Source: Psammoneis japonica
Taxonomy: Eukaryota
Reading direction: 5' to 3'
DNA: 64,000 nt
Assembly (NCBI GenBank): GCA_008632985.1
Contig: QPGO01000050.1
Location: 186,001-250,000 of the forward strand
Made by a program: the position numbers and the translations under genes. How positions within the stretch are numbered: position 1 is the first letter of the stretch; every line of letters starts with the position of its first letter. Below are positions 5,797 through 37,277 of this stretch, in pieces. The notes beneath the pieces were generated by a model. That model was not told the DNA's origin, did not search any database, and saw nothing but the letters and a program-made list of their open reading frames with translations.

Positions 5797-7302
5797 TGTT
5801 GAATCAAAATAGAAGCGCTTTAGAGTAGTGGTCTAGCCACACATAAAAAGAGACGGAAGCTTTGGAAGCAGTCAAGGTCGGAATGAATGGTACTGTACTT
5901 GTCGCCAATGCCGATTCTGCCGGTGTTGGTCGTGTCCATTTTGCGTGACTTCACAACATCATCGCAAGACGATGGCATTGGCGATAAGGGACGGGCGACG
6001 AGCGGACTGTCATTTGTGAAGTTCAACTTGTCCACGTCACACCGCCGGTGCTGTATGATCTGATGCATCGGACCTTCACGCACGCTCTCCTCCTTACACT
6101 TCGTGAGGGTTGCTGCCCAGCCACAGGAGGCGTTGGGTGGATGTTGAGTGACTGGAGTGTGTGAGCACCAGATTTGATGTTTCTTGGCTGTGGTCTGCTG
6201 GAGGCAAAGAAGCTGCGCTTTTGTCTGTGCAGCTGGGTGGCACACAGGTTGTTGGTGGTGGTGTGTTCAAGGCATTTTTTTGCAGTTGTGTGCTGGCATG
6301 TTTGCAACATCTGTTGTGGGTCATCTGGGGCTCATCTGATGGCCCCAAAATCAACAGAGAGCTGCTTTGTCTTCACAGAAGGTGGGGTGGGGGGCACACA
6401 TCATGGCAGCTGACGTGAGCTCCAGCTTGGGGTGGCAGTGGAAACTTGCAGCTGCTGGCTGTGCATGGGGGCTGTGACACTTTGCACTCACATCAAGTTC
6501 CTTTTAGCCCCAAATTCATGCACATTTCTCTGCACAACTTTGGGACATTGTGTGCATCAGTTTGTGGCAAAGTTGTTGTGCCATCCACCCAACAACTTTC
6601 TCTTCATTTTTTTTCCTGCAGCTTCTGCGCACACTGGTGCACATTTGTGGAGAGTGCAAAACCATGCACACGCAGCAGATTTTCCACAATTTTGAGCACA
6701 CAGCAAAGAGGTGTGATGGCACCACAAAATGACCACTTGTTTTGTTGTCAAATGCAAACATGTTTGTTGCCCCACAAGTGAGCTGTGGGCACAGCTTGCA
6801 CACAGAATTGTGTCTGGAAACTTGTGGGGGTCCTGGAGATGCCTCAAGAGCTCCTCAGGGGCTGCACATCAAGGTCTGGCTGTGGATTGCAGCAGGCATC
6901 ACTTGGGAGCACTCAAGCTGGGCTTGTGTCAAGTTGGCTCAGTGCTGCCAGGGATGGCAGTGCAGAGAGCAGCACATCAAAACTCACACAGCCATTTCTC
7001 AGGCCCAAGTGATGCACTGCAGCTGGAGCTTTGAGTGCTTCAAACATGTGCTCAGGTTGAAGAAGCACATTGTGCTTGAAAAGCTTTCAAGGAACATGGC
7101 TTTTTTTGTCAACAAGCAACCCAAAAGGTGCTGCACACCTTTTGAAAATCATTGAGGAAAGAGGAAATAAAGTTTGGTTCAGTCAAAAAGTGCAAATCAC
7201 AGCAAGCGCCAGTGTGCAGAATGACTTTGACACATGCACTGTTGAGTTCAAGGACTTCATCAAGCAGCCCAAGCCATGCAATGTTCAACAGCTGCATGTG
7301 GC

Positions 7303-8400
7303 TGCAGTCAAAGCTGGAAAGTGCAAGTGTGCTGTCATTCATGATCAAGCAGAGAACAAATGCTGTCCTCCAGCTCAGCACAAAAACATGCCACCAGAAC
7401 TTTGCAAAAAGCTTTGCTCCTCACTCCATGGCACATGTGGGGACATGGGCAAGGACAAGTCATCTAAGTCTGGCAAGCCCAATGATGCATGAAGGATTTG
7501 CACAAGCTGGCCAAGATGATGGCTGCAGCTTTCGCTGCCAAGGTTGACAGACAGGCAGGTGCAATGTGAGCAGCAAACCCAATGAGGAAGAACCCACAAA
7601 GCCACCAGCAACAAAGCAGCACAGTTGCAGCACATTTGCTCTGATTCTCAGCACATTTCAAAGCACAAGAAAAAGGGACAATGCTCATCCTTGGGCTCCA
7701 ACAGGACATTTCATCTCAGCTCACTCCAAACAAGTTGTCTCAGCCAGACAATGATGTGTCTGAGGCAGCACAGATTGAGTTGCAAACTGAGATGGATGGC
7801 CATGCTGACACAAGTGTGCTGGGAAAGCATTCCATGATTGTGCTTGATCATTGGCATGCAGTCAAAGCTGAAAAGTGCAAGTGTGCAGTCATTCACAATG
7901 ACCAAGTGGAGGACAAATGCTGTCCTCCAGCTCAGCACAAAAACATGCCACCAGAATTTTGCAAAAAGCTTTGCTCCTCACTCCATGGCACATGTGGGGA
8001 CATGGGCAAGGACAAGTCATCTGAGTCTGGCAAGCCCAATGATGCATCAAGGATTTGCACAAGCTGGCCAACATGATGGCTCTGCAGCTTTTGCTGCCAA
8101 GGTTGACAGACAGGCAGATGCAATCTGAGCAGCAAACCCAATGTGGAAGAACCCACAAAGCCACCAGCAACAAAGCAGCACAGTCACAGCAACTTTGCTC
8201 TGATTTTTGGCACTTTTCAAAGCACAAGAAAAAGGAACAATGCTCATCCTTGGGCTCCAACAGGACATTTCATCTCACTTTGCTCCAAATGTGTTGTCTC
8301 AGACAATGTGTCTGAGGCAGCACACAGATTGAGCTGCAAACTGAGATGGATGGCTGTGCTGACACAAGTGTGCTGTGAAAGCATTCCATGGTTGTGCTTT
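7303..8400. repeat. Direct tandem repeat, 2 copies, ~554-bp period
   Basis: tgcagtcaaagctg...tgtcctccagctcagcacaaaaacatgccaccagaa starts at 7303 and 7857. Confidence 0.92.
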
Positions 8401-11400
8401 GTCATGAGCATCCTGCAGATGCAGTGGGGTGTTGTTCTGGCTGTTTGTTGTTTGCCACAGCTCCTCCAAACTAGAGCAACAAGATGCCAGCCTTTCTGAT
8501 GAGAGATGAGATGCTTGAGGTCATGACACCTTGAAACATGCATTTTCTCCCTGCAGCAAACAAGTCAAGAATGGGAGTCTGGCAAATGTGTGGTGTCAAC
8601 ACTTTTGTCATGTGAATTGTCCAAGGGACTTGGGGGTGATTCTGTGTTCCGTGTGCCATGGGAAATGCACAACATTCTGTGGTCGAAACACATGGCCAAC
8701 ATTTGCATCCAGAGCACCACCTTGGTTCATTTTGGTGCATGAGACTGAAGGTTTTTCTCTGGCAACAGATGCATGTTAACAAAGGGCATCAACAGGAGAC
8801 AGTTCAGCATTTTGCTTTTGCAGACTTGTTCTCTAGAATGAAAGAAAATTGTGGAGCCACTGTTGCAAGCAACACATTCTGGTGCACCATGTTTTTCATC
8901 GCAGCTTTGGAATCATGCGGCACGTGGCAACATCATGCATCTTTCTCACGCTCCTTTTTTTGACACTTCACATTGTGGGAACAACTCTTGTGGCTCTCAT
9001 TTTGTTCATCAAACTTGCCCTCTGGCAAGTGCATGAACACAAAGGAACAATCCACATCCAGCAGACTGGACAATTCTTTGCAAAACTCAGGCAGACATCC
9101 TGGCCATGCTGCCTCAACCAAATGGTGGGCTCAGACAGGACGGCCAAGGTCAACACTGACAGCCATGAATTGACACAATTGAGTCACAAGCCAAGTGCAT
9201 GTTCCAAAATGCACAAAAATCCAGACCACCCTCAACCAGCAATGTGTCACACAACTCCTCCAGATTGCAGCAGAGAAGCCATCAATTCCTTGCCCTGGCA
9301 ATGTGCAAACACACCTTGGTGGTGTGATGCCAACACCTGGAACATGCTGAGCATGCAGCGGTGACATTGGACAGCTTTTCAAAAATTTGTGGTTTTAGTT
9401 CAGAAGGACATGTCCATCATGCTGGCAGGCAGCCACACTTTGTTGTTTTGGTCAGAATGCACTTGACAACCAGGCCCAGCAGCGCAGCATGCTGCGCTGC
9501 AGGGGTGGAATTGCAGTCATGTTGTCAAATTTCACAGGAACTCCTCCCAGCTGTGCAATGATGAGATGACAGTGAATGTCTTCATGCCCAATGCATTGAG
9601 GGGTGCCAGTTTCCAAGTCTGCCATGGCAATGTCATCCAAGGTGCTGTGACACTGAGAGACTCTCTCCCTCATTGATTGTTTTTGACAAAATCAGCAAAA
9701 CTGTTAAAACAAGCAAGATGGGTGTGCTCTTGCTGAACATGTGTCATTCCAGTGTTGATTCCAGCAACTGGCTGCAAACCATTCTTGAGCACCTTGACTG
9801 TGCTTGCAATGATTCCAGAGGAAAGAGATTGCCAACTGCCCTGTTGTTGGAAACAACCAAATTGCCGGCAGAAAAAGTTCTGAAAATGCAACAGGGTGCA
9901 TGTCCACAAACCAAATGTTTGTCTCCTTGAATTGCAGGTGTCAAAAGTGAGCATTGCACATTGTCTTGCATGTGCCTTGTGGCCAAGACAAGCCAAGTGA
10001 CAAACAAAGGGTGGTCCCTCCATGTTGTCAATGTCAGTCAAGACTCAGCCATGTTGGTGAAAGACAAGTGAGTGGTTGCTCACAATGTTTGTGGTTCACT
10101 CCCATTCCACCTTGTTTTGATGCCAAATCACACCAGCCAGGACAACTTTTTTGTTCTTGTCAGCAAGAGCCAGGTTTTCTGCTGTTGGTTGGTTGTGCTC
10201 AATCTTGAATGGATTGAGGTCTGATGCCCACTTGTGAAACAATCCATCCTTGCACTTGTCCTTGAATCTGCTGGTGTGGTGTTCACATCAACACCAGCGA
10301 ATCACATTGTCAACAGAGGAAAAATCTTTTTCAATCCCGCACATCGTGCAAGTGCAAAATGTGCAGATGAGTTCACAAACAAGGGCTCAATGTCATCAAA
10401 CCCATGAAAACCAGTCCCATGCAATGACATGACCAGGGCATGTTCCCAAGTGTCTTGTGGAGCTGACTCGAGCTCATTCTTGTCAATCCAACACAGCTCC
10501 AGGTGCACTTCTTTGTTTGATTGGAGTGCGATGTCTAGCCAAAATCAGAGCCAGCAAAACTGAAACCATTGGTGCGTCAAGTTGGAGACACAAAGGCTGC
10601 AGACAATGGCTTGAGTCAAAAAATTTTGGTTGCTGCAGAAAGAGCAGAACATTGCCATGCTGGTGCCAAATTTTCTCATTCATGGTGTCATTGCCAGTGA
10701 TGCAAAATCAATCTGATGCTTTCTCTTTCATTTGCCTCTGCTGGGGGGGTGCCTTGGGATCACATGTTGCACCCCAGTGAAAACACAGTTGCATCACCTG
10801 AAACACACACTTCTTGATGATCTTGGCCAACTCCCATGTGGCCATGGCCTTGATCTCATTCAGCAGTCATGCATTGATTTCCATTGGATGTGTGAGCAGC
10901 TTTCTTCCACAAAAGCTTGTGTGGATGTTGGCAATGTCGACACACAATGGAGTCAAGAGGTGCCAAACTTCCAATCCTAAAAGGCTGTGAGGCACCAAAC
11001 TTCCCATCCCAAAAGGCCATCTACAATGTGTGACACCCAAATGTCACTGCAATTGTGAAACATCAAAAGACTGGTTGTCTCCATGAGCCACAAGTTGCCA
11101 TCAATGATCAATCCTCCTGGTCTGCCGCACTTAAAAGTTGACACTTGCAGCTTGTCTGACTTCAAAATGTTGGTCCAAGCAATGGCTGACTTCCAGTGCT
11201 GCCAGTCAGCAAGACCTCAATTGTTTTGAAATTCAAATTTCTTCCTGCACCAGGTTGTCATTCCTTTGGATTTGTGTTTGCCCAAGAGATGAGACAAAGT
11301 GTGGCATCCAGCATTGATCATTGTCTGCAAAAACCATGCAGTCCAGTGGCTCTCTTTTTTTTTGAGTTTGTTGATGTGCACAAATCGCAAAAAGGAGTGC

Positions 11401-14400
11401 CAATTCATTTTGTTGTGAACCAGCATGACTGACAAAGGCAGGACACCTGGCTTCAGGGAGGCTGACTGCTGCCAATGTCTAAAACTCACAACCATTTCTT
11501 CAACCTCATTTCTTTTCTCAGCGATGTTGTTGACCACATGAACCTCCTCAAGCTGCCATCCAAACAGTCTTGTTTGATTCTGCAAGAAGATCAACTGATC
11601 CTTGAGAAGAAATGTGTGTTCTCAACAAACCAGTGCAATGCAGAGTGTCAGGACAAGTCTGCTGTGGGGATCAAGATCCAAGTCATGCTGCAGATGTGAC
11701 TCTCTTGTCTCTGGTGAGACAGAAGCCAATGTTGAGGTGAGTTTTGAGTGCTTGCACTTGCAGATCCATTCTGGCATGTGTCCGATGCAGTTGGCTCCCA
11801 ACAGCTCAAGCATCTGGTGCATGCAATCATGATCTGTTGCCTTGAGCAGCAACCAGCCATTGACACTGCAGGTGAAGTCCTTTTGAAGTGTGTGCCTCAG
11901 CAAATGCAACTTGAAAGTGTGAGGACAGTTGCATTGCCGCGAATTGGTTTGCATCTCCTGGCAAGGCAGAATTCACTTCTGCATGTTCCAGGTGTTGGCT
12001 TGGTCCATTTTCCAACAGAGGGGCTGTGGGTGCACCAGACACCATCAGTGCACTTGTTGTCAATGATTTGCAGTGCACTTGCCACATGAAGTTTGTTGTC
12101 TTTGTCAAGAACCACCACCAGGTTGTTTGGCTGAGCTGTTGTGTCCACAAGCACAAACACCCAGAAATTTGCACCTCCAGAACCAAGATGTGCTGTGGAG
12201 CACAAACAAACAGGCAGCAGCATGTGCCCTGGTGCCACAACTTCTTCTGGGGTCTTTAACGCAAATTGCAGGTCAGACTTGTCTCCACTGTTGGGTGGCA
12301 GTGTGAACTCAACAAGGGCATCCCCCCTGGAGAGACCAACAAAACCACCGAGTCTTGCCAAAGCATCATCAAACAGCCAAATGGCTGTCTTTTCAGCACA
12401 TGTCAGGGTCAACATTAAAAAAGGGAATCACTGCACAAATGTGATTGCAGACGGCTTGGGGGCAGATGGTGGGACGAGACCTGGGAAACTTGATTGGCTT
12501 CCCGATGTTGAGAGAAATGGGCAGTCCTGGATCAGTGTTCAACATCATGAATCTGTTGGAGCTGCTGGATGGAATGCTGTCCAAGATGAAGGTTTACAAT
12601 GTCTTCAGATTGCTGGGATGAGACTCCATTTTGACCAGCTTTCAATGCCAGCCAGTCCATCAAATCTTGTGCTGAGCCACATGATTCATCTGGCACAGCT
12701 TTTTGGCACAGGGTGCAACCAGTTTTGTTTGGTTGCTTGCATGAAGCGTGCTGGCCCTCAGGGCATGTTTCACCCCTTTCTGGCTTTTTAATTGAAGTCA
12801 CTCTAGTGCCGCCACACACAGCACATGTTGAGAGGACTGAACAGCAGTTGGTCGGCAAGACTGCAGTTTGGGTCGGACTTGCTTTCTGGTGGTCAATTCA
12901 TGATGACAACTGTAATTTGCTGCAAGCAAGAAAGCCTGACTTTGCAAAAAACTCATCTTTCAAGTCTTCCATGTCCTTCCACTGCTTCATTGGAGAGCTG
13001 GCAGAGCAGACTTCAAACACGATGAAGAGGCGTTCAATCGACCATCCTGAAACCTGCACAATGTGGGACAACCACATTGTGACATCTTCAAGGAAGACAT
13101 GTTTGTGCTCCATCTTTAAAAGCTCAATGCTCATGAAAATTGCAGCATCAATGATGGACGTTCCTGCTGCCCCACACTGCCAGGTGGTGACCTCTGGATG
13201 ATGATTGAACGGGCCTTCTTGGTCATCTGAATCCACAACTTCTGCTTCTGGAATCCAACAGGATGTTTCAAAACACTGTTGCTGATGCCCCTGTGGCAAA
13301 GCTCTGGGAGCAACAAAAACATTGGAGCCAAGGAGGGGACCAACTGGGACCCTGCTCAACTGCTGCTGGCCCGCTTGTGGATGCCATGGATGGCTCTGGA
13401 GTTGAAGACAATGATGACGAAGCTGAAAAAGTGCCCTGATGTTGAGAGATGCCAGCGGAGACAAATCCTCTTTGTTTCCCATCTCCATCACTTTGAGCAC
13501 AGATTTGAGAATGCCTTTGCCATCTGTTGTTGGCTGACCTCTTGGGGGCTTCCCATCTGGAATCGCAGCATGTGAGGGAGGCGCAACATTGTTTGGCAGC
13601 ACCACTTCAGCATGAGTTGGTGGCATGGCATCAGCCACATTGCCTGCATCATGACAATGTGGCTGTGCATGGGGATGGCTCAAGACATTGCCAACCATTC
13701 ATTTTGTGGCACAGACACAACTCAACAGGAGTCATTTGAAAATGTCACAAGAGTCACAATTGGCATTTTGCACAAGGAAAAATGCCAAATCGTGTGGAAA
13801 TGTGCACAATGTCATGCGAGAGGGTGATCAGAGCTAGTGACTTTTTGGGAACTCAATTGACATGTCATCTGACCAAAGGCATTTTGATTTGCATGGTGAA
13901 GAGCAACACCTTTGGTCAGACAACATTTCAATTGATTTCCTGAGAAGTTGACATTCGAGTGCGGATGGGTGGACAGACTGAAAACAATTGTTTCTGGTGC
14001 TCTTCTGCACAATTTCCACGCAATGACTCTGAGAGCCACAATGATTCCCACCGTCCTTGCCCAAAATTTTGACTTTGCGCAGTGATGCCATCTGATCAAG
14101 ATCTGCGCGCACACTGCTCAAGTCCTGGACATGTTTGATTGTCCATCCATGGCGCCCAATTGACAGATGAACAAATCAAGCCTCACACGTGAGTTCCTCA
14201 GTTGCTCAATCTGGACCCTGCCATTCATGATGGTGGTGGCAATGATGAGCCCCCCCTCCCTCTGACTGTGCATGACAGAGTGGTGCAGCACCACAAGGTT
14301 CATCAGAAGCAGAAGCAGTTCTGGCAACTTGTGGTGTGGGCTTGGGAAGAGCAGGCAGCACTGCCAAGATCTCTGGGTTGGTCAACTCCGTGTCAGGCAG

Positions 14401-14565
14401 GAATCAGTGGAGTCCAGTCCATGCTGGCAGTTGCCACCACAGGCACTGACTTTGACATTGGCGTTCCAGCTGCACCTCTGACAGGAGCTTTTGCAACCAA
14501 ATTGTCAATCATTCACACAGCTGAGTTGATGGACTTTCAGCTTCCACCAACACACACAACCCTCA

Positions 14566-15678
14566 GCTGTTCAATGCCAAGAAGGCGCACTTGGAGCAGG
14601 CACTGGCAGTGCTGTTTTGGAAGGTAAAATCTCTAGAGAATTGACAGCATGCACTTGGAGTTGATGCCAGAGTGTCTGTGTTATCCTGCTGTTGCATCAA
14701 ATTGGCATTTTTTTTGCAGTTGGGCCAAAAGAAGCAACTTGACAGAGCAAACTCTAGAGGAGGTTTTTGTGAACAAAAAATGTGCAGAAGCAGTGCCATG
14801 ATGTGTGGCCCAAAAAGAACAACACGTTGTTTCCTCGTGGACAACTGTCACTTGCTTGAGGAAGTGTGAAATAAAATGCATTTTAAAGTTGCAGCATGTG
14901 TGTTTTGTGCATGTCAAACAAACATTTTCAACCCTCATCTGTTCATCATGTTTATGATCGCTGTCCCAAGGGGACCATCTCCTGGTTGTTGGTGTGCCAC
15001 AGTCAAGTGGTGAGCACTGTTTTTGAGTGTGATGGGAGTGATGATTTTGCAATGGATTTGCAATCACTTCACTGTGGAATTTGGAAGTTTTTTCAGTGTG
15101 TTTGCAACTCAGAAGAGATGCAGAATCCCACCAGAGTGGAGGTGACTGAGCACCTGGATCCAGTGGAACAGAACCTGTGGCACACAATGCTGGGATGTCA
15201 TTCAGGATGGGTGCAATCCAGCAGATTTCTTGAGTGAGAATGAACTTTCAATGTTGGTGAATGACATGGACTGCTCATGGGAGGACACTGAAGTGCATCT
15301 CATGGCAGAGCTGGAACAGAATTGGGAGCTGTTCGATGCTGAGGCACACCTGAAGCAGGCACTGGCAGTGCTGTTTTGGAAGGTGAAATCCCTGGAGAAT
15401 TGACAGCGTGCACTTGGAATTGGTGCCAGAGCATGATCCATGTCATCCTGCCATTGCATCAAATTGGCATTTTACACCGCAGTTGGGCCAAAAGAAGCAA
15501 TTCAATGGAGTGAACTCCAGAGGAGATTTTTGTGAACAAAAAACATGCAGAAGCAGCGCCATGATGTGGGGCCCAAAATGAATGACACGGTGTTTCCTCA
15601 TGGACAATCATCGCTTGCCGGAGGAAGTGTGAAACTTCATGTGTTTTGTGCATGTCAAACAAACATTTTCAACCCTCA
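14566..15678. repeat. Direct repeat, 2 copies of ~350-370 bp (14566-14936 and 15328-15678)
   Basis: Both copies share gcaggcactggcagtgctgttttggaagg and catgtcaaacaaacattttcaaccctca. Confidence 0.9.
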
Positions 15679-20884: not shown

Positions 20885-20992
20885 TCCGACAAACCCCGAC
20901 AAGCCCCGACAAACCCCGACAAGCCCCGACAAACCCCGACAACGTACGACAAACGCCGACAAGAGCCGACAAGAGCCGACAAACGCCGACAG
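20885..20992 (+). repeat. 10-bp tandem array (CCCCGACAAR-type) inside the MITE
   Basis: About 10 units of the form ccccgacaaa / agccgacaag. Confidence 0.9.
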
Positions 20993-27540: not shown

Positions 27541-27645
27541 GGCAGTGCCGCTGCACAAGGTCTCCCATCTTTCATGATTTTGGTCGAAGTTGTTGGTGCA
27601 CTGCACTGCACAACATGTGTGCCAGCAGTCTTTCCACCGGATGTT

Positions 27646-27646
<1 letters not shown>

Positions 27647-27678
<32 letters not shown>

Positions 27679-27807
27679 NNNNNNNNNNNNNNNNNNNNNN
27701 NNNNNNNNNNNNNNNNNNNNNNNNNNNNNNNNNNNNNNNNNNNNNNNNNNNNNNNNNNNNNNNNNNNNNNNNNNNNNNNNNNNNNNNNNNNNNNNNNNNN
27801 NNNNNNN

Positions 27808-27839
<32 letters not shown>

Positions 27840-27846
27840 CACACAC
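27647..27846. repeat. (CA)n microsatellite spanning an assembly gap (N at 27679-27807)
   Basis: Pure CA runs on both sides of 129 Ns. Confidence 0.95.
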
Positions 27847-28204
27847 TCTCACTGAAATGGCTGCACAACATTTTGTCAACATGCTCCAATGTGGCAGAAA
27901 CAGACAACTTGACAGAGGTGCGCTGCTCTTCCCACACTCCTTCAAGACAATTCATGGACCTTGGGGTCCTTGTGCTGTTGAGTGGGAAGCTCAGCTCTGC
28001 TCATGTTGGGAGAAAGGTGATGCCGGGTCACAAAGCCACAACACCAACAAGGAGGCATGGGGTCACAACACCACCCCAAGATCAACCTTGCACAGTGTGC
28101 TTGGCCACAATTGTCAAAGTGTTGCCTGGAGCCCACTGGATGCCACCAGTGCCCTCAGCTTCTTGCCATCGTTGGGTTTGTTGGTGCTGTCATGCTGCTG
28201 GTGT

Positions 28205-28720
28205 CCACCCCAAGTCTCGGAGCCGCCGGCTCAGCTGCCCCAGGTCCCGCAGCAGCCGGCTCAGCTGCCCCAAGGTCTGCAGCAGCTGGCTCAGCCACCC
28301 CAAGTCCCGCGGCAGCCGGCGCAGCCACCCCAAGTCCAACAGCAGCTTGCCCCAGGTCGGCAGCCTCAGCCGCAGCCCCAGCAGGAGCCCCGGCAGCAGC
28401 AGCAGCAGCATTGTGGGCCAGTGCTGGCATTTCACAGCACCGCAAGCAACCATCGCAGTGCAAGGAGGCGCCACATTGATGTTGCGCCCGGCCAGCAGCA
28501 GCAGCAGCAGCAGGGGCAAGTTCCGGCACCACTGCAGCAGGTTCCTGGCCAACAGCAGCAGCAGGGGCAGGTTCCGTCACCTTCGCAGCAGGTTTCTTGC
28601 CAACAGCAGCAACAGGCACAGGCTCTGGCTCAACAGCAGCAACAGGGGCAGTTCCACCTGCTGCTGCCACAGCCACAGGAGCAGCTTCAGGTGCTGCTGC
28701 AAGCAGAGCTTCAGCGGGCT
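28205..28720 (+). repeat. 30-bp tandem repeat (28205-28347) followed by CAG-rich low-complexity sequence
   Basis: gccggctcagctgccccaggtcccgcagca-like unit about 5 times, then (CAG)n runs. Confidence 0.8.
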
Positions 28721-28984
28721 TCAGATGCTGTGGTGGGGTTTGCATCACAGTGCAACATCTCTGGCTGCAGATTGCTTTTGTCACTGTCTGTGCCATTTCC
28801 CTGTTTTCTGCAGTGGCAATGTTTGTTGCTGTGCAAATGTGCAGCACCATTGAAGACTGTTTTGACATTGTGACAAAGAACAATTGAAAGCTGTTTTGAC
28901 AATTGCGACAAATGCACAAGTGGCAGGGAAATGAAAAATCTGTTGCTTTAGAATGTTGTCCATTGTTCTAAAACACAGTGTCAC

Positions 28985-29940
28985 AGCATCTGTGAACATC
29001 AAACAATGGATTGCCATTTTCAAGCTCCAGCTCTGTGATCACAGCCACTGCTGTGAACACATTTTGGTGTCTTTTGACTCAATGACAAAAGACACGGTTC
29101 AAGCAACTCCACTGCTTGAACCTGTTGTTTGCAGCTTCATGGCAAGCTCAAACCCATCCATGAAGTTGGCCACCATCCTGTTCAGGAACACTGCAGAGAG
29201 GGTGGCCCCTGCACCCCAGATTGGCTGCAACCCTCTCACCATCATCAAGGCAGTGTGCAAGAGCACTTTTGAAAATGTTGATGTCTGGACACTGGCCACA
29301 TGGAAACTTTCCATAAATCCAGACAATGTCTCCTGTCACAATGTTCATGGCAACCTCTCATCTGACTCCAGGCTTCTTGAATTTGTGCAAAAACTGGCCT
29401 TTCCAAAAAGGCTTCCAACCACAAATGCAGAAGATGGTGCCATCAACCAACACCAAGCATGTGTTGCCCATGCCCCCTTGAAAATGATTTTCCCACACAA
29501 TCTGGAGCAAAGTAACTCAGTGATGAGAGCCAACAAAGTGAAAGAGCAACAAAATCCCGCATTTCTAATGTTGCTTGATGTGCACTCACCCCACAGCAAA
29601 TTGCAGATTGCAGATCACAGCAACAAATGTCCAACTCCACTTGCGAAATGTTTTTTTGTCAACTGCGTTGGTTGCACTGGCAAGTGAGCAAAAATCTGAC
29701 TCAGAGCACAGCAGAGCTTCAGCGACATCATCAGCACCCACGGAGGAGAGGTGAGCCGCTGATGCACCACGTTCCATCTTTGCAACTGGGTCCATCATTG
29801 TCCACAACAAGGCACAACAGATCTCAGGTCATGTCCCAAACATTGCCTGAAACCATGTCACATCTGATGCGTGTGCAAACACGGTTGAGCACCGCATCAG
29901 TGCCTTTCCCTCAGAAAGGAAAGTTGTTGCTGCTGTGTGC
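28985..29940 (-). mobile_element. Decayed DDE transposase (DDE_Tnp_4-like; Harbinger/ISL2EU-related)
   Basis: Translated remnants FQAMFG, DKKTFRKWSW, CLVLVDGT, HKFKKPGVR*EVAMNIVTGDIVWIYGKFPCG, GERVAANLGCRG (expected ADxGYRG) and NPLFDV; broken by stops and frameshifts. Family assigned by motif recognition only. Confidence 0.72.
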
Positions 29941-31832
29941 ATGACAAAGAGGCAGTGCGTTGTCAGCCAATGTCAACAACGCCACTGCTTCTGCCTCCTT
30001 GCTCTCTGTGACATTTGGAGAGAGCAGATTGCGGCATCATGGTTGTTGGGATCGTGGCACAGAAATGGTGGGTGCGGGTGAGCTGAGATGCTTCAGAAAG
30101 ATGCGGTGACATGCGACATTGTGTTGCTCAAAGGTGAGCTTCAAAGTGAGCTTCGAAGAAACTTCGAAGCATCTCTTTAATGCCGCCAGCTCTCTCTAGA
30201 GCAGCTGGCACCCAAAATCTAGTCTAGCCACCAGCTGGAGCCAGCCACCACTGGCAGCTGGAGCAGCCACCACTCTGCTCCTAGAGCAGAGAGCTGGTGC
30301 TGCAGCAGACAGCATGAACAGACACCGTCAATGTCAAACGTACAGTGCCGTGTGCCCAAGAACGTGCGTGCATGTCCAAAACACGTAGAAGTGCCGTGTG
30401 TGCGAACCCACAGGTGCGCATCGCATGGTTGGGGACACGGAAGCAATGCCGGATGCGATCAGTGCGGCAGCATGGCACTGCAGAAGAGAGGCGCAGGCGA
30501 AGAACAGAAGCAGTCCAATCATCATCCCTCACCACCATCACATCAAAACCCAATTGAAGAGACAGTTGCTGATGCGATTGCATTCACACTGGATTTGGCA
30601 CGACCATTGCAGCCAGTGCAATGTCTCGTCGCCCAGCTGCAGAGCCTCCCGATGATGCTGACGCGAACAATGGACGATCTGTGTGTCAACGAGCGTCGAC
30701 ACCTCCTCCAGGTCTAATTGCCACGGAAGATGCGCCCGGTGATCTTTTTCCCATTGGAAAACTGGCAGCAAGTCCACTTGAAGCTCGAGGTGAAGTCAGC
30801 AACGGCTCTCGGTTGATCTCAGGCTTAGAGACATTTGTTGCCGACTTGCACCGCACCCCCCGGTGGTTCATTGAACTCAGCGATGTCGATGACACAGAGG
30901 CAAGCCCTCGTTGTGGTGTCATGCTGGTGGTGACTCCAATCACAACAAACCCAGAGGACTGCACCCTCACCAACATGACAACGGACCAAGAGGGCCGTGT
31001 CCTTGTGGTGAACGTGACCGTCTGTCCACGCCGCATCAGTGGCAATGCTCCCCAATGGTTTGGAGATGAACTGGAGAGAACTTCTTCAGCAATCCCACAA
31101 GGCGACAGATGTCGGGACAGGACCGGCACCTTTCAACCTTCCAGAGTCAGCAAAGACTGCTGGCAGACTGCCTGGTCCAATCAAATTGGCAGGCACATCT
31201 CTGCTGATGCAAACATTTGTGCAACAATGGAAGATTTGACCAAGAGGCGTGGTTGGGTTCGCTCAGATGGCACTCGCATTTGATTGACAAATTTGAACAA
31301 CATGCGTCCCCACGATCGAAATGGCAGCAACCAATGGTTCATGTTGATGCAGCTCTGGACCAACACCAGAAACCTTGTGACAAATGTCTGACAGAAACCT
31401 GCAGCAGGACCAAACCATGGAACAGAGTTTGTTGGCCAGTCATTTCCGAGTCTTGGTTTCTGGCTAAATCCAGGTCTCTTCTTGCATGTGTCCCAAAGTT
31501 TGTGTCCCTCCACTCTGGCCAGCTAGTCACTCTAGAGCAGCCAGCTAGAGAGAGCAGCTAGCCCCTTCTCGTTGCGATGTGATTTCATGTAAAAAAGAGG
31601 AAAAAGCCCAAGTTTCTCGGAAAAGTGGTTGACAATGCAGCCGCACGAATAAAAGGCAGTTGTCGCGCGCAATTTCGCAGGCTGTGCGCGCGAAGTTCGA
31701 ATTGATTCTGGTGCCGTGTCCAGCATGATGGCGGGTTTTTGTTGTCTTCCACTGGGCGCAGTGTCAACAGTCTTTGTGGATGGTCAGTTGGTGTGCTGTC
31801 GGGTGGGTGGAGGTCGATTGAATCGGGGTCCT

Positions 31833-34400
31833 TCAATGTTTGTAAAGGGACAGACCTGCGCCATCTTCCCACTGGGGTCGCCTGGAGAGCTGATCTGAGA
31901 GGCAGGAACACAGGATCCCCTGAGGCAACGGTGGGTCACCCAAACTGTGGTGATGCTCATCCTTGCATTGACACAGCTGCATGCTTCAGAACATGGCTTT
32001 TGCCACTTGTCTGACAGTTTCGATGCCATCTTCTTGCGGAGCATCACCTTGGCTTCCTTGCTGAACAGCCCGTCGCATGACACAACGAAGGGCATGACAT
32101 GACGGTGTTGTTCAAGACAGGGCTTGAGGTGCTTACGCTGTTTTCATGTTCGTGGCTTGCCAGGACTTCTTCTGGTGTTTTGGACAGGTGTGACTTCACG
32201 TCTGTGTCAGGGATTCGAACATCCATCACCATGTCTGTCCTTCTGTCCCAAAATCTCATGCCGAGAAGGTCTCCACGATCGCCATCGTTGGACTTGTTGG
32301 AGTTGGTGTTTCCTGGGGAACCATTGGGGGTGCTTGAGCTTCCATTGTTGCAACCAGTGGGGTTGATTGGGGGTCCGTCGCGTGTGTGGGAAGGTTTGCA
32401 AGCCTTGCCCATCAGGTCACCCACCAGGTTGTCACGCACTTCATCATGTCGTGAGATGACTGGGCCGCCCTTCTTGCACTGAAGAGCATGATTCATGGTG
32501 AATTTGCATCCACATTCATCACAGTGCTCTGGGAGGTCTGGCGGAGCACCGCCATGCCACAAGAAGAGTGCATCACGGAGCTCTTGGCATGAGAGTTCTG
32601 TGCCGTTCAGTGTCGAAGGGTGTGCTGACAGCCACGCTCCAGTCTTGGTGCTGCGCTTGACAGCTCTGGCCTGAAGGTTGGGCAGGTTCCTGAGGATCCT
32701 TTTGAGGGTCTCTCCATGTGCTTTGACTTTTCCATCAGCTGCTTCCTGTTTCACTTCACGCATGGTGTCCTTGTGCACTGCGGAGGAGAGCTGGGAGCAG
32801 ATGCGGAGTGAGATGATCACGTGGGAGCACGTGAGAGCACTTGCTTCACAGTTGTGAGCTGTGGACTCAGTTGGACAAGGGATGGACAGTCACGAAAATT
32901 TGATTGGGAGGGTGGACAGGGCCAATCTCAGGTTGTCGTTGGCTGGGGTCTTGCCCATCAGCGCCGGCAGAAAATTGCACTGTGTCGCGTGTTCTGCGTC
33001 GGCGAACAATTCTCCGCAGTCCTTTGCCACATGTTGGGCACATTGCCACTGAGGTTGCAGAGACTTTTGCAGACTAGCACAGGCGGTCTGAGGGTGGCAA
33101 ATTACAATCTTGGCGAGTCCCTGGATGACCGAGGTCCATGACTTGGCTTTTTCGCCCAGCCAACGGTCGCGTGCGTCCGTCTCTCCGACGAAGCCTCTGA
33201 GGCAGCAGCTGCCAGACTTGACAGCAAAGCCCAGATCTCCAAAGTGTGCTCCAGCATTTTCCAGGTTGTGTTCTGGGACTGCCAGGATGTTCTTGGAGTT
33301 GTCGGCAAGGCAGCATCCGTGTGTTTGGGGCCTTTGGCTTGGAGAGTGAGGAAAAAATCCCGCAGGACGTTGAATTTCCCAGCTGCTGCGGAATTGTCGG
33401 CATGCCAAGGGGTGAATGCATCTTTAAAATGTTCATTCATTTCATAGACTGGTGGAAGAAGTCCCAGTCCATGTGCCACCACACCAAGAAGCAGATCACC
33501 CTGTGTGACACCTTCTTTGCTGAGCAAAATGAAGGCGGTTCCGAAGCTTCCGCGGATGATCAGGACACTCCAATGCTTGTGGCTGTTGAAGGTGAACCTT
33601 GCACCAGATGGCCAAAGGTGCCTCACATTGCACAGCATCAAGATCCAGTTCTCTTTGTTGAACCCATTGGAGGCATCGACAAAAAGAAATCGGCAGTCAT
33701 CTTCAAATTTGTGTTGCTCCCAGAGCATGCTCATCGTGTGAATGGCGCCCTTGATGCCTGCTTCCAGTCCAGCACACAGCTGGTCTGTCCCACAAGCTTC
33801 CTTGGCTTCTGCTCCAGCAACTGGATGAATGGCTTTGGCAGTGGCTTGTTGCCACACCTCCCCTGTGCCGACCAGATGTGCGCCCGGGTTTTTGTTTTGC
33901 ACGACAAGTCGTTTTGCCATGATTTGCGGCACACGGCCCACAGGGGGTGACTCGTTTGCTGGCCAGTTTGCAAAGTTGCACAATGCTTCTTTAAGCAACC
34001 CACTGGCTTTTCTGCAATGGAGAAGCCATTCTGATGCTGTGTCAGCATCAGATCTGCCAAGTCCTGTGCCCCCGGACAGTCTGCGCTTGACGGTCTTGAT
34101 GGTTCCATTGGTGACAAGTGCACCCTGAAGCTCAGGCAACTCACTGAACTTGTGAAAATGGTCTTCATCCGGGATCCTCTGGTTTGGATGTTTCTTCTGA
34201 AGAATCTCAAACACTGAGTCATTGGTTTTTTTGTTGATGTCATCTGGTGAGAGGATTCCACCTTTCTCGCATTCGGAGATGCACCCACAACCACTCCTCG
34301 CAGGTTCCCTTGGAGCACCGTTCTATTGAATGTCTTGGTGCACTGCTCAGACATCTCCTCCCTTTGAATGGTCTTCAGGTCAGTTTCTGTTGCACATGGA
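31833..34400 (-). mobile_element. Decayed non-LTR retrotransposon with RT, CCHC knuckle and restriction-like endonuclease (CRE-like clade), 5'-truncated
   Basis: RT motifs FVDASNGFN, SKEGVTQGD and WHADN (from WYADD); C-x2-C...HALQC and RHDEVRD; RLE motifs RGDLL...DVRIPDTD and PFVVSCDG; C-terminus PQWEDGAGLSLYKH*. Confidence 0.85.
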
Positions 34401-36690
34401 CATTTGTCAAAACCTCAAAAATGTTCCAACGGAGTTCAAAACTGACTTTTGCTGTGGCAATGCAGATTTTTGGACCTTCAAAGATTTGTCTTCTTTTTTT
34501 AACAAGAATTTTACTTTCACAATCAGATGAAGACAATTGATTCTGCACACAAGCACAAATGTTTTATTCTGCCACTTTGCTTGCTGTTGTCAGGTTGGTT
34601 GGCACTGCCATGTGTCCTTTTGCTCTGGAGTTTGGAAATTCAGCGGCCCAACTGCTCCTGTTGGGGACAAGGCAACACAAGCCACACCACAACATCAACC
34701 TTGCAATTCCCAGCCACAGTTCTCAAAGTGTTGCCTGGGGTTGCCAGAGACCAATGGCACCTTCACCAGCTTGCTGTTGCTGGTTTGTTGGGGCCATCAT
34801 GGTGTCCTTTTGAATTTGGAAAGTCACATCTGCTCCTGTCAGGAACAAGGTGACATGGGGTCACAAAACCAAATGATCAACCTTGCAATGCTCAAACATG
34901 GTTTGCACCATCATGGCAGGGTCCTTTCATTCTGGAGCCAGGAGTTTGAAGTGTGCTTCTGGCTGGGACAACATGATGGGGTGTTGCAACCGTGCAACAC
35001 TGGCATTGTGCTGAGCACAATTCACAAGTGTTGGTGCCTGGGGTCCACCAGAGACTGCACCAGAGTGACCTCAGCCTGCAGGTGCTTGTTGGGTTGGTTT
35101 GTGCAGGCGCGGGGCTGCTCACAGTCTGAAGTTGGAAAGCTCAACAAGTCTGCCCCAGCCTGCAGACAAGGAGATGACATGGGACCACAACAGAGCAAGG
35201 AGGAACATTGACAGCAGGAGGCACTGCAGCTGCAGTGCCTCCACATCTCTGGGGGCTGCTGGGCTGGCTCTGTGCAGGCACCACACATGCAGCACCACCT
35301 CTGTGCTGACCCAACCAACCTCTTGCTCAACGAGCTCCCTGTCCACAATGAACATCTGTGCAACCAGCTCCACAACCTCTTTTGACCTCCTGCCTGCAGA
35401 TTCAACTGCGACGAGAGTGCAGCAGCAACAAAGGTTGTTGCGCACATGTGAATCAGCTCTGCAAAGATCAGCTGGCACATCAGCAGCCCCACAGACACAA
35501 ACAAACAAACTGCATGTGCCAGCACAAACAATGTGCAAATTCTTCAAACACAGATGCACCAAATGTGATTGAAACAATGTTCAACATCCAGCTGGTGCAC
35601 AAATGAGAGCTCACCACCAGCAACAAAACACACACTGTCAGCAAAGACCCAGTCATGAAATGACAAATTTTCAAGTTGATTCAAATGACCCAAAGCATTT
35701 TGAAACTAGTGTGATGAAAGGCTTCAAGAAGATGACCACTTGCAAAATGATGATGCAAGCAATGATTGACAGGCTGGCTGGGTTCTTGGCTGGGTGTCAT
35801 GGGAGGGTGCTGGGGTGCTGATGTCACAAGAGAGAGCTTCTCCTCCCATGCTGGACAGAGCTTTGCCAGGCAACAAATCCTTGGCTGACCCCACCTTTGT
35901 CAATGCTGACACACCCGCCAATGAGGCCAGCTGTTTGCACTTCTGTCTCCAGCTGCTTTTCCTCCAGTGTCATCTCCAACACAAAGCCCAGCCATCCTGA
36001 CACCACCTCCTCCTGTGCTGAAGAATCCTTCCCCATTTCTTCATCAAGAAATGCCACATCCCAGTCCCCCTGACACCAAGATGGCAGCTGGTTTGTCAAC
36101 CCCACCTTGGTGGAATGATGTCCTGACTTGAACCTGGCCATGTGATCTCCACCAGGGTTGTTGAGGGTGGTGCGCCATCCAACTTCTTCCTGTTGCTGGA
36201 GCCAAGGATGACATTGTGATGAAATCAGAAGTGGGCAACACTCTTCATGGAACACTTCTTCTGTTGCAATGTGCCAAGGGCACATTGACAGTTGACAATG
36301 CTTGGAAGTTTTTTGTCCTCTTGAGGCCACCTTCATTGCCTCCATCTGAGTTGCTGGGTTGCACGGATGCCTCTGGGAAACCACTGTTGCAATGGAGAGA
36401 ATCCATCAGATCATCACTGTGACCCTGAAAAAGGGAAAGGAGTGGGGGTGTCACACACAAATCAACTGTGTGCCAGTGCCTCCCCACAACTGAAATCTCT
36501 GCAACATGGGACAAGGAAATGCATGCCCTGCATGATGCTGCTTGGCCGCAAAGTTGCCAATGGATGCTTGGCTCTTCTGCTGTTGGCTCATGGACATGCG
36601 TGCACAAGCACAATGCAAAATGACAGCAGTGGCAAGCAAAAGGAAATCATGACCACATCATTGAACTCAATCATCAAAAGTGGCAAGACG

Positions 36691-37277
36691 GTGACGGACA
36701 CGAGCAAATGATCTTGTTGGAACTGGTCTGCATGCCACATCATCATCACTGTCATGTGTTGGATGAGGGTCTCAGCAGTGCACACATGTCAAGCATTGGC
36801 AAACAAGGAGACACTGGATGTGTTCGATTTACATTTCTTTCGTTTCCTCATCCGCCGCCTTGGTATCTTCGACAATGAGTTTTCCCGATTCTGTGTTCCC
36901 TTTTCCTTCTAGCTGTTGGTTGTGCTCCTCTTGCACTACAAGGGCGGCATTTCTCACCAGTTCGTAACGGTTGGCTACACCCAGAGCAGCCGCCGAGGCT
37001 TGAGAATCACCAGGCACAACGTCAGTAGTCGATGCATGCCTCGATTGCAAGAAGAACCCTGGATCCAAACCAGCCGCGGCGGCACGAGCTTGGTGTGCAA
37101 TCAAAACATCTTTTGACGACAGTGCTCCATTTTCTTGTCCATTGGAAGATGCAACTCGCCGCAAAGCCGTCAGCAGTTGCTGTGAAAGGTGGACCGTTCG
37201 GAAGCTTCAAAACAAACCCGTTCCATGCGATTGAACTTACTCAGCACTTGAGCCATTGCTCGCCCGTCGGCTGTTGC
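36691..37277 (-). pseudogene. TAF11-like pseudogene, copy 1 (internal ~350-bp deletion, TpA-mutated)
   Basis: Aligns to 37328-37800 and then to 38156-38249. Confidence 0.7.

Follow-up and report, generated by a model that had tools for sequence, protein, structure and literature searches.

Near-total loss of TpA from repeat-rich blocks of a diatom genome points to a targeted TpA to TpG/CpA process acting on DNA in place

In a stretch of 64,000 bp from the pennate diatom Psammoneis japonica (contig QPGO01000050.1 of assembly GCA_008632985.1, hereafter the window), long blocks almost devoid of the dinucleotide TA alternate with ordinary host genes, which raises the question of how TA was lost from them. 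A two-state HMM on TA positions delimits five such blocks (6096-20641, 21634-36829, 39087-42506, 51714-54401 and 59112-62260), summing to 38,999 bp or 61% of the window, in good agreement with the five blocks of about 38 kb listed in the initial annotation, which had read them as transposon DNA hypermutated by a new genome-defence process. The observed/expected ratio (o/e) of TpA is 0.02-0.14 in the blocks, compared with 0.60 for the intervening host genes, whose TA content had rightly been called normal, and TpG+CpA is about 1.9-fold enriched in the blocks. The observation proved larger than first reported, with TpA loss that is near total and with a loss of CpG to be added to it.

The size of the effect is best seen between 6100 and 14000, where TA occurs 21 times, exactly the count originally given, against an expectation of 542 from base composition (1000 shuffles gave a mean of 543 and a minimum of 492) or of about 325, indeed a few hundred, if the o/e of 0.60 from the normal part is applied. 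The 500-bp bins are bimodal for TA o/e, with 66 below 0.1, 16 at 0.1-0.4 and 44 at 0.4 or above. In the fully depleted sequence (26.4 kb) the o/e values are 0.03 for TA, 0.12 for CG, 1.90 for TG and 1.86 for CA, compared with 0.60, 1.02, 1.11 and 1.14, respectively, in normal sequence (25.2 kb). AA (1.21) and TT (1.26) survive there, AT stands at 0.78, and the GC content is 0.479 in depleted versus 0.484 in normal sequence; as previously noted, this is not a general loss of AT. Both strands are affected alike, (TG-CA)/(TG+CA) ranging from -0.10 to +0.06 across individual blocks. For the context bias of the surviving TAs, host-gene frequencies stood in for the ancestral ones.

Block 1 (6096..20599; TA o/e 0.04, CG o/e 0.14) is repeat-rich DNA with tandem duplicates at 7299-7857/7852-8411 and 14565-14937/15327-15678, and none of its ORFs of at least 100 aa has a Pfam match. 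About 260 bp separate its left edge from the 5' end of the minus-strand His_Phos_1 ORFs (5019-5832). It is followed by a 1.08-kb TIR element (20600..21676, arms 20600-20728 and 21548-21676) that sits inside depleted DNA and is itself unmutated, with normal TA and abundant CG (o/e 0.52 and 1.15 in the 1-kb bin from 21001), and that is therefore probably a young insertion; a search for relatives of its 279-aa ORF found none. Beyond it lie block 2a (21677..29700; TA 0.04, CG 0.11), with tandem repeats of about 1.5 kb across 22671-27540 and an assembly gap at 27679-27807, and block 2b (29701..31835), which is single-copy at a read depth of about 61 and is at an intermediate stage (TA 0.14, CG 0.61). 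After a retroelement at 31836..34393 come block 2c (34394..36829; TA 0.03, CG 0.12) and a graded border zone (36830..37184) within copy A of a tandem duplicate whose copy B is at 37328-37816. The remaining blocks are block 3 (39087..42506; TA 0.05, CG 0.47), block 4 (51714..54401; TA 0.02, CG 0.14), between a PAP_fibrillin gene and histone H4/H3 genes, and block 5 (59112..62260; TA 0.02, CG 0.20), between the NDH2 region and the ORF 62486-63538 on the minus strand.

Block borders are sharp or graded across about 350 bp, and host genes show no trace of the change at a distance of 180-700 bp. The normal stretches carry methylmalonyl-CoA mutase, ankyrin, His_Phos_1, histone H2B/H2A/H1/H4/H3, AAA_2 domain, PAP_fibrillin and NDH2 genes or ORFs, whereas 0 of the 127 ORFs of at least 100 aa within the blocks reach the Pfam gathering score, and the two largest blocks hold no recognisable coding content. 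Since a single TE was recognised, the label of transposon DNA lacks proof over most of the 39 kb: the reported coincidence of the blocks with decayed TEs applies to the retroelement and does not extend to the rest. Like the TIR element, the sequence from 37.6 to 39.1 kb, which is multi-copy (summed depth about 385-440), is unmutated, so neither repetition nor location alone is the trigger. The process may be an extinct past episode rather than an active system.

Three polarised tests (the border duplicate, the tandem copies, and the RT against its relatives) show that the TA loss is derived and took place in situ. In the border duplicate, TA in the unmutated copy is matched by TG (9) or CA (8) in the mutated copy at 17 sites, and 0 sites have changed the other way. 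Left of 36830 TA is converted at 11 of 11 sites; in the graded zone (36831-37184) it is converted at 6 of 13, with CG kept at 18 of 21. Seven alignments of tandem copies contain 127 double differences of the TG/CA type, the next class reaching 20, and this is the main type of difference in block 2a; the copies resolved the same sites independently to TG or to CA. In the 7299/7852 pair, both copies of which are mutated, 13 of the 41 differences are transversions; the process therefore stretched over appreciable time, which fits a chronically elevated rate as well as bursts.

The one TE recognised in the window, the RT-bearing retroelement at 31836-34393, lies on the minus strand, is 5'-truncated and dead (TA o/e 0.06, CG o/e 0.48), and combines an RT with a C-terminal Cys/His motif. 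It has 3206 relatives (best E 1.5e-84), RVT_1 being present in 5 of the 7 scanned; by tblastn it covers residues about 181-1011 of a 1016-aa relative (P0122), with the coding region split into three frame pieces. The family is multi-copy in the genome (summed read depth 300-1700).

Over columns with a conservation of 60% or more across 15 or more relatives, 0 of 9 conserved Tyr are kept in this RT, 7 having become His (CAY) and 2 Cys (TGY), and the catalytic Y-A-D-D motif now reads H-A-D-N. Where the codon has an A that does not follow T, conservation holds at 43 of 51 columns (Asn 4/4, Lys 9/11, Asp 12/14, Glu 8/11, His 5/5, Gln 5/6). Conserved Arg is kept at 13 of 28 columns, and 11 have become Cys, His, Gln or Trp, the residues that CpG transitions yield. 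TG (229) and CA (280) both abound on the coding strand, and about 90% of TA is gone relative to the family, whose metagenome loci (n=73) have a median TA o/e of 0.60 and keep the conserved Tyr at 563 of 627 columns; judging from these relatives, the depletion is not intrinsic to the family. Duplicates, tandem copies and RT codons thus agree on a region-restricted, both-strand, TpA-specific change to TpG/CpA, as had been claimed, its outcome, polarity, specificity and symmetry being directly observed. The three findings named beforehand as contrary (TA in amplified-DNA reads at these sites, a TE family free of TA by nature, A to G changes not enriched at TpA) were, as far as they could be checked, all absent.

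CpG loss, which the initial annotation had treated as mere background, follows the TpA-depleted blocks, several times more slowly per site. CpG is strongly depleted in most blocks (o/e 0.12) and about half depleted (0.47-0.61) in two stretches, 29.7-34.4 kb and 39.1-42.5 kb, whose TA is already down to 0.05-0.14; no block in the window has low CG but normal TA. TA loss precedes CG loss, because elements with TA at 0.05-0.14 keep CG at 0.47-0.61 and never the reverse, and in these less decayed elements TpA was lost about 2.4-7.3 times faster per site than CpG (ln-ratio). The CpG part is most likely 5-methylcytosine deamination, because diatom TEs are CpG-methylated, in Phaeodactylum by DNMT5a (PMC9998398). 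Such decay accounts for the CG to TG/CA changes, for example at 11 of the 28 conserved RT Arg, but it cannot remove TpA, the loss of which outpaces that of CpG.

A precedent exists in one other alga. Although the initial annotation knew of no eukaryotic pathway with this signature, Mettrop et al. (bioRxiv 10.64898/2026.01.13.699255, April 2026) report exactly such a spectrum, TpA to TpG/CpA hypermutation of integrated viral DNA in Bigelowiella natans, so the process is not categorically new. Of 231 mutations recorded in two integrated viral regions of mutation-accumulation (MA) lines, 230 were A>G or T>C, with every GC-biased one at TpA and a rate of about 6e-7 per site per generation; 124 TpA-poor, CpA+TpG-rich clusters lie in the genome, TpA-poor CDS are enriched in RT and DDE domains, and an ADAT2-like adenine deaminase was proposed (10.64898/2026.01.13.699255). 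Both cases share A>G and T>C changes at TpA only and on both strands, restriction to regions of the nuclear genome with TpA depletion and CpA/TpG gain in clusters, and a link to foreign or mobile DNA. They differ in lineage (Rhizaria, a chlorarachniophyte, versus a diatom, Stramenopila), in recognised target (integrated viral regions versus one retroelement among repeats) and in extent, the depletion being near total here (o/e 0.02-0.06) as against a Rho of 0.45 for the NCLDV region and a cluster cut-off of 0.43 in B. natans. CpG decay accompanies TpA loss here, whereas 'CpG' occurs 0 times in the preprint text, as do 'diatom' and 'stramenopile'; and mutation was followed in real time there but is known from sequence alone here. 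Our literature search found no report of TpA hypermutation in diatoms, of TpA loss this complete, or of a link to CpG decay. The same signature is present in 6 of 79 metagenome loci, on contigs from two other assembly series, as an element-limited block (TA o/e 0.05-0.17, CG 0.51-0.70, TG+CA 1.3-1.5) with normal flanks visible in 4 of the 6.

We therefore favour, at a probability of roughly 0.8, the explanation that repeat DNA was rewritten in place by a targeted, DNA-level TpA to TpG/CpA process. Old repeats, along with one or more dead retroelements, would occupy the DNA between the host genes, and on either strand the A of TpA would undergo an A:T to G:C transition. A site would be hit a single time, the products TG and CA offering no further target, so that the process would end at about 2-4% of the normal TA level with hardly any effect on base composition. 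Delimited blocks would be the unit of action, with host genes spared, and an enzymatic cause directed at silenced or foreign DNA would be in line with the proposal for B. natans. The element would be permanently disabled through the loss of Tyr codons and presumably also of ATA, TTA, CTA and GTA codons and of TA-containing signals. As for the chemistry, we tentatively prefer, at a little short of even odds, an ADAT2/TadA-like enzyme that deaminates adenine to hypoxanthine; such enzymes naturally act on A34 of tRNA, which always comes after U33 and thus lies in a UpA context. Silencing, a defence role and the identity of the enzyme are points that we infer. Of the original interpretation, a targeted-looking TpA process acting in place holds and its novelty does not, and TE identity is shown for one retroelement.

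The same outcome could have come from the opposite base, if T in the TpA of silenced DNA were enzymatically oxidised or modified, for example to 5hmU or 5-formyl-U through a TET/JBP-type dioxygenase, and the altered base occasionally paired with G. This route, which we consider rather unlikely, predicts identical, strand-symmetric products (TA to CA, and TA to TG from the other strand), and sequence alone cannot separate it from adenine deamination. Base J and 5hmU are favoured on T before A, in kinetoplastid telomere repeats and dinoflagellate DNA, but 5hmU:A pairs are mostly non-mutagenic, which counts against it. In dinoflagellates, another SAR lineage, 5hmU made by TET/JBP enzymes marks and silences TEs (PMC11572971), so that a non-canonical base on TE DNA could be an upstream cause of T to C change; there it is an epigenetic mark, however, and the passages searched in PMC11572971 describe no mutational footprint or TpA specificity, 'TpA', 'mispair' and 'T-to-C' each occurring 0 times in them.

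Returning to a TpA-directed process, its traces would be illusory if a modified A or T at TpA and a modified C at CpG were systematically misread, as near-total conversion, sharp borders, the coincidence with probably methylated DNA and the assembly gap might suggest. Exact-word contigs from a public sequencing run (X1, platform not on record) nevertheless match the blocks, with 2 differences apiece over 28000-31822 and 34712-36590 and 0-1 over 39846-41787, at word depths of 59-66 (58.8 over 34712-36590) against 58-71 for normal single-copy sequence. This makes an artefact unlikely, although X1 may be the window's own source sample and the check is therefore not independent. A strand-specific miscall at palindromic TA would predict two half-depth paths where one fixed sequence at full depth is seen, and such contigs are not expected from noisy long reads. 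With the six metagenome contigs from other assembly series, and with Illumina MA-line data recording real TpA mutations in B. natans (10.64898/2026.01.13.699255), we give misreading very little credence.

Selection is no more credible, in the form that TE lineages evolved an avoidance of TA, for instance to escape a UpA- or TpA-specific nuclease, and that such elements make up the blocks. A live TA-avoiding lineage might be seen in the metagenome locus L025, a TA-poor element (TA o/e 0.12) with an uninterrupted 971-aa ORF and a FADD motif, but TpA to TpG/CpA change never makes a new stop codon, so an open frame such as this is no proof of function. The nine Tyr losses are not neutral or synonymous, because the catalytic Y-A-D-D Tyr is among them, and the depletion spans non-coding DNA, independently resolved tandem duplicates and a duplicate that is part-depleted while its sister copy retains TA. 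Passive decay, similarly improbable, in which TpA is hypermutable throughout this genome and selection alone preserves it in genes, would suit blocks that look old (no recognisable genes, decayed CpG, transversions between tandem copies), yet probably neutral intergenic stretches keep TA o/e at 0.68-0.94 (for example the bins at 44001-46001 and 56001), the bimodal bins form no continuum, and the RT is still recognisable despite its lost TA.

To our knowledge ADARs are metazoan, which counts against RNA editing. The idea that TE transcripts underwent ADAR-like A-to-I editing and were then reverse-transcribed and integrated can all but be set aside, even though ADARs favour a U 5' of the edited A (10.64898/2026.01.13.699255) and the sole recognised element is a retroelement, since TA to TG and TA to CA changes both occur on the RT coding strand and in every block, and mutation also runs through non-coding DNA and tandem duplicates and, across a graded border, into the flank. 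APOBEC3 (C to U on cDNA) and ADAR (A to I on dsRNA) likewise leave hypermutated TE copies with a nearest-neighbour signature, but they act on replication intermediates and on one strand, not on both strands of DNA in place.

A further parallel to the targeted process favoured here is RIP of ascomycete fungi, an irreversible genome defence that also makes exhaustive, context-specific transitions in place in repeats and TEs, leaks into flanks and leaves regions lost to similarity searches. Its direction is opposite: C to T change, mainly at CpA, creates TpA and lowers GC, whereas here TpA is destroyed and CpA/TpG are the sink. RIP-like mutation targeted to TCG is reported in Pucciniomycotina (PMC3318451), and RID-related DNMT4 enzymes, of function not established, are reported in some diatoms (PMC9998398).

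TA depletion in the window is strong and sharply localised. The initial annotation had put the number of TA dinucleotides between 6100 and 14000 at about 21, which proved exact: 21 were counted versus 542 predicted from base composition, and when this stretch was shuffled 1000 times the mean was 543 and the minimum 492. CG was scarce in the same stretch (55 versus 447 expected). A two-state HMM run on TA positions recovered the five TA-poor blocks that had been claimed (about 38 kb), placing them at 6096-20641, 21634-36829, 39087-42506, 51714-54401 and 59112-62260, with a total of 38,999 bp; the first two are a single 30.7-kb block interrupted by a 1.08-kb element with terminal inverted repeats (TIRs). 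The observed/expected ratio (o/e) for TA was bimodal in 500-bp bins, with 66 bins below 0.1, 16 at 0.1-0.4 and 44 at 0.4 or above.

In fully depleted sequence (26.4 kb) the o/e ratios were 0.03 for TA, 0.12 for CG, 1.90 for TG and 1.86 for CA, versus 0.60, 1.02, 1.11 and 1.14, respectively, in normal sequence (25.2 kb), while GC content was the same (0.479 versus 0.484). The survival of AA and TT was borne out (o/e 1.21 and 1.26 in the fully depleted 26.4 kb), and AT stood at 0.78 versus 0.03 for TA. All 1-kb bins lying wholly within the five blocks had a TA o/e of 0.02-0.14 and a TG+CA o/e of 1.5-2.3. The gain was about equally divided between TG and CA in every block (skew -0.10 to +0.06), in agreement with the earlier proposal that TA had been replaced by TG or CA on both strands. 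Block ends lie 180-700 bp from host coding sequences, and the host genes, which were found in the stretches of normal composition, have the normal TA content that had been ascribed to them.

The direction of change could be read from a tandem duplicate lying across the right-hand end of the second block (copies A, 36691-37184, and B, 37328-37816). Up to position 36830, all 11 TA sites of copy B were TG (8) or CA (3) in copy A, with CG changed at just 2 of 5 sites; in the 354 bp to the right, TA was converted at 6 of 13 sites and CG was kept at 18 of 21. No site had TA in copy A and TG or CA in copy B, giving a polarity of 17 versus 0, and all 17 polarised changes at TA sites were TA->TG or TA->CA. 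These proportions place a graded border over about 350 bp, at which TA conversion precedes CG loss. In seven alignments of tandem copies from within the blocks, TG versus CA was the top double difference (127, the next class being CC/TT with 20), and there were 653 transitions versus 262 transversions. Such TG/CA differences would be expected if ancestral TA or CG sites had been resolved independently in each copy after duplication.

An outgroup comparison was provided by a 406-aa ORF (33105-34322, minus strand), the only long block ORF backed by homology, for which 3206 relatives were found in a library of 1.84 billion proteins (best E 1.5e-84, 46% identity). RVT_1 was present in five of seven relatives scanned, the window ORF itself scoring below threshold, and tblastn with 150 relatives delimited a 5'-truncated element in three frame pieces at 31836-34393 (minus strand), which by these matches is best classed as a retroelement with an RVT_1-class reverse transcriptase (hereafter the RT element). 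A column was scored if its conservation was 60% or more in 15 or more relatives. None of the nine conserved Tyr columns was kept in the RT element: seven had become His (CAY) and two Cys (TGY), and none TTY, TCY, AAY or GAY, so that the catalytic Y-A-D-D is H-A-D-N and the consensus W-Y-A-D-D reads W-H-A-D-N. By comparison, of the 51 columns for residues whose codons have a second-position A preceded by A, G or C (Asn, Lys, Asp, Glu, His and Gln), 43 were kept, as the proposed TpA specificity predicts. The family is not inherently TA-poor: in 73 metagenome loci it had a median TA o/e of 0.60 and a median CG o/e of 0.89, with 563 of 627 conserved Tyr columns kept. The border duplicate, the tandem copies and the outgroup, three independent tests, all indicate that TA loss is derived, was made in place and is specific to TpA.

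The blocks had been described as transposon DNA, and this holds for 31836-34393, where membership of the RT family shows a mobile origin; it found no support in the rest of the blocks, since none of the 127 block ORFs of at least 100 aa had a Pfam match at the gathering score. Four weaker matches (E6, CoV_NSP2_N, TLD and one more below the cut-off) were judged to be chance. We also rejected the long block ORFs as coding relics: in first-order Markov simulations of 30 kb of TA-free sequence the longest ORF averaged 273 aa, with a 95th percentile of 370 aa. ORF finders will call long spurious ORFs in such DNA, as only one of the three stop codons is available to it, and most of it will escape similarity-based annotation of transposable elements (TEs).

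The same signature was found in 6 of 79 metagenome loci of the RT family (L023, L025, L047, L050, L060 and L077, from two assembly series). Each contains a TA-poor block, with o/e values of 0.05-0.17 for TA, 0.51-0.70 for CG and 1.3-1.5 for TG+CA, and few of the conserved Tyr columns are kept (0/5, 1/7, 1/6, 1/4, 4/10 and 4/8). In L025, L050, L060 and L077 the block coincides with the element of the RT family and is bordered by sequence of normal composition (TA 0.4-0.7); an RBM39-like RRM gene lies in one flank. These loci provide evidence that the same process may operate in other environmental genomes. The open 971-aa frame with a FADD motif in L025 is no proof of a live element, because TpA->TpG/CpA never creates a stop codon.

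A basecalling artefact would imply TA at these sites in reads of amplified DNA. X1, a public sequencing run that has no library type on record and may be the sample behind the assembly, contains 71% of sampled words from 33500-38500, and its exact-word contigs over 28000-31822 and 34712-36590 have two differences each from the window, at a word depth of 59-62; contigs of normal single-copy sequence (41765-43388 and 43604-44227) have a depth of 58-65. A miscall at palindromic TA would give strand-dependent calls and thus two half-depth paths, not a single full-depth path with fixed TG or CA, and contigs of this kind would not be obtained from noisy long reads. As far as the tools allowed, none of the three findings that the initial annotation had named as fatal to its proposal, namely a basecalling artefact, elements intrinsically free of TA, or A->G changes no more frequent at TpA than elsewhere, was made.

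Where X1 and the window are listed as differing in single-copy block contigs, the differences include a TA->TG change at 35708 and three positions (30912, 33933 and 39977) where X1 has CG and the window TG or CA; none is listed for 3.6 kb of normal X1 contigs. This is a weak hint that diversity, segregating or recent, may be raised at the target dinucleotides. The X1 depths also bear on copy number, mutated DNA being multi-copy at 31.4-35.4 kb (depth 300-1700) and single-copy at 28-31.4 kb (depth about 61). The stretch at 37.6-39.1 kb, which a second run, X2, covers as well, is multi-copy (in X1 its summed word depth is about 385-440) with normal TA and CG, and therefore represents an unmutated repeat family beside fully mutated DNA; no Pfam match was found in 37600-39100. 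Repetition by itself probably does not decide which DNA is mutated.

CpG deamination had been treated as background only, and here the initial annotation needs correcting: CpG is depleted in the same blocks, later than TA. At 29.7-34.4 kb and 39.1-42.5 kb the TA o/e is 0.05-0.14 while that of CG is still 0.47-0.61; in the oldest blocks TA has reached a floor of 0.02-0.04 and CG is down to 0.11-0.20, and none of the window's blocks has low CG with normal TA. The window holds a clear age series, from unmutated DNA through loss of TA to loss of CG as well. Expressed as the ratio of log survivals per site, with the RT family medians as starting point, the TpA:CpG loss ratio is 3.8-4.0 in the less decayed elements (the RT element, 29.7-31.8 kb and 39.1-42.5 kb) and 2.4-7.3 in the TA-poor metagenome elements.

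The CpG loss would be most simply explained by deamination of 5-methylcytosine (5mC). Diatom TEs are CpG-methylated via DNMT5a, and RID-related DNMT4 enzymes of unknown function are present in some diatoms, according to the accessible part of PMC9998398. The outcome of such decay is matched by the low CG of the old blocks and by the conserved Arg columns of the RT element, 13 of 28 of which were kept, with 11 of 28 replaced by Cys, His, Gln or Trp, as CpG transitions produce. One dual A/C deaminase that attacks TpA as well as CpG may also be at work and would suit the fairly constant loss ratio in young elements, but methylation accounts more simply for the CpG loss.

To our knowledge, before 2026 no cellular process had been known to strip selected parts of a eukaryotic genome of their TpA. 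The statement in the initial annotation that no eukaryotic pathway with this signature had been described was nevertheless a few months out of date, a preprint of April 2026 having reported TpA->TpG/CpA hypermutation in mutation-accumulation lines of Bigelowiella natans (bioRxiv 10.64898/2026.01.13.699255). According to the accessible text of that preprint, of the 302 nuclear point mutations, 231 were located in two viral regions, one from an integrated giant virus and one from a virophage; all but one of these (230 of 231) were A>G or T>C, with all GC-biased ones at TpA. The mutations were seen in some lines only, at a rate of about 6e-7 per site per generation. The B. natans genome has 124 TpA-poor, CpA+TpG-rich clusters (cut-offs TpA <=0.43 and CpA+TpG >=1.52), RT and DDE domains are enriched in TpA-poor CDS, long-term footprints are only mild, and an ADAT2-like protein was proposed as the deaminase; CpG, diatoms and stramenopiles are not mentioned in the text accessible.

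The window shares with Bigelowiella the A>G/T>C transitions (17/17 border changes and 9/9 Tyr losses), the restriction to TpA (Tyr 0/9 kept versus 43/51 for other A-codons) and the TpA-poor, CpA/TpG-rich clusters (TA o/e 0.02-0.14, TG+CA 1.5-2.3). Confinement to foreign or mobile regions may have a counterpart here in delimited blocks with normal host genes, a mobile origin being shown for 31836-34393 only. A process of the Bigelowiella type would be expected to yield de novo mutations in real time (1e-7 to 1e-6 per site and generation), of which the differences between X1 and the window noted above are the only hint. We file it as a case of this very recently described kind, the first from a diatom, with the most extreme footprint so far and coupled to CpG decay. 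In the papers covered by our literature searches, where the Bigelowiella preprint alone bore directly on the matter, there was no report of a TpA-loss signature in diatoms, and the terms hypermutation, deamination and dinucleotide do not occur in the accessible text of a paper on diatom TEs (Maumus et al. 2009, PMC2806351). In the window the end state is seen in another lineage, an ecologically dominant one, with tens of kilobases nearly without TA, sharp borders and neighbouring genes spared, suggesting a widespread RIP-like genome defence of opposite chemistry, for which TA and CG o/e plotted against TG+CA offer a simple genome-wide assay.

What the sequence records is that the A:T pair of TpA undergoes a transition, on either strand equally often, with one hit per site and products immune to further change; the change is confined to blocks with short graded borders and runs faster than methyl-CpG decay. 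Of the targeted TpA mutator, likened to a reverse RIP, that had been proposed, the mutational process is upheld by the three polarity tests, while an enzyme acting on silenced DNA is what we infer. ADAT2/TadA-like enzymes act on tRNA A34, which is always preceded by U33; for TadA itself the substrate is U-A-C. Our first choice, with a probability of roughly 0.4-0.5, is that such an enzyme deaminates adenine to hypoxanthine. Surviving TAs in the blocks are YTAR in 58 of 98 cases and RTAY in 4 of 98, and in the normal parts 18% and 33% of TA sites, respectively; taking these host parts as reference, which may differ from ancestral frequencies, this tentatively suggests that the mutator prefers RTAY over YTAR, in agreement with the TadA substrate. 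The main alternative, mispairing with G by a modified thymine (5hmU or 5fU of the TET/JBP type), would leave the same sequence, and we regard it as improbable. The data suggest that a TpA-specific editor of A or T in DNA exists in nature, which would be of relevance to base-editing research.

A far broader reading can be entertained, although we hold it to be somewhat unlikely: diatoms, and in view of Bigelowiella perhaps SAR protists at large, would possess a dedicated chromatin- or RNA-guided DNA base-editing defence, the functional mirror of fungal RIP. Its target would be the adenine of TpA, deaminated on both strands where mobile DNA is silenced in ordinary nuclei. With 5mC deamination it would erase both self-complementary pyrimidine-purine dinucleotides, permanently disarming invaders without stop codons or a GC shift and rewriting a large intergenic fraction (61% of the window).

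Other known processes fit less well. Editing of retrocopies by ADAR or APOBEC affects one strand and is limited to the element, whereas here TG and CA products both occur on the coding strand, and mutation runs through non-coding DNA and a graded flank. Fungal RIP itself is C->T, chiefly CpA->TpA, and raises TpA, the opposite of the window (TA o/e 0.03, CA/TG 1.86/1.90); it is triggered by duplication, which may or may not play a part here, where the mutated DNA is both multi-copy and single-copy and one multi-copy stretch is unmutated. UV TA-photoproducts and psoralen-type adducts have mixed T>A/T>C/T>G spectra. Such damage at TpA (PMC10632143) was rejected, the polarised changes being all transitions and the effect block-limited.

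The TIR element that interrupts the first two blocks (20600-21676) has normal TA and is CG-rich, and its position inside a depleted block marks it as a later insertion that stayed unmutated, which could help to date the process. Its TIRs are about 25 nt long with one mismatch, it carries internal GTCG/CGAC-rich short repeats and it looks non-autonomous; no homologues of its ORF (20693-21529) were found in the homologue search, nor any of the ORF at 38828-39706 in a search with 'longer' lengths. At the edge of the block at 39087-42506 (39040-39226, minus strand) there is a weak match to ABC-transporter nucleotide-binding domains, in their signature/Walker-B part (TAP1, E 1e-4), possibly the degraded remnant of a host-type gene that fell within the mutated block. 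A repetitive, Ala/Pro/Glu-rich open frame of 270 aa (28158-28967, minus strand), derived from a GC-rich tandem repeat beside an N gap (27679-27807), is probably not a gene.

The largest host gene encodes an intron-less methylmalonyl-CoA mutase of 825 aa (784-3261, minus strand). Its best relatives (76-79% identity) are from raphid pennate diatoms (a Bacillariaceae MAG, Nitzschia, Cylindrotheca and Mayamaea), one metaclust entry (63% over 57% of the query) being set aside, and centric diatoms come next (69-75%), which identifies the window as nuclear DNA of a pennate diatom. The other host genes, all of normal composition, include those for an ankyrin protein, a His_Phos_1 protein, a PAP_fibrillin protein and an NDH2-type dehydrogenase, as well as an AAA_2-domain ORF. 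A tRNA scan of the window found none, and an Rfam scan had as its sole match a histone 3' stem-loop (43215-43260). This stem-loop belongs to H2B, which with H2A and H1 forms one histone group (43215-46057), H4 and H3 forming another (55116-56215); both are of normal composition, and the two small groups are kept apart by mutated blocks.
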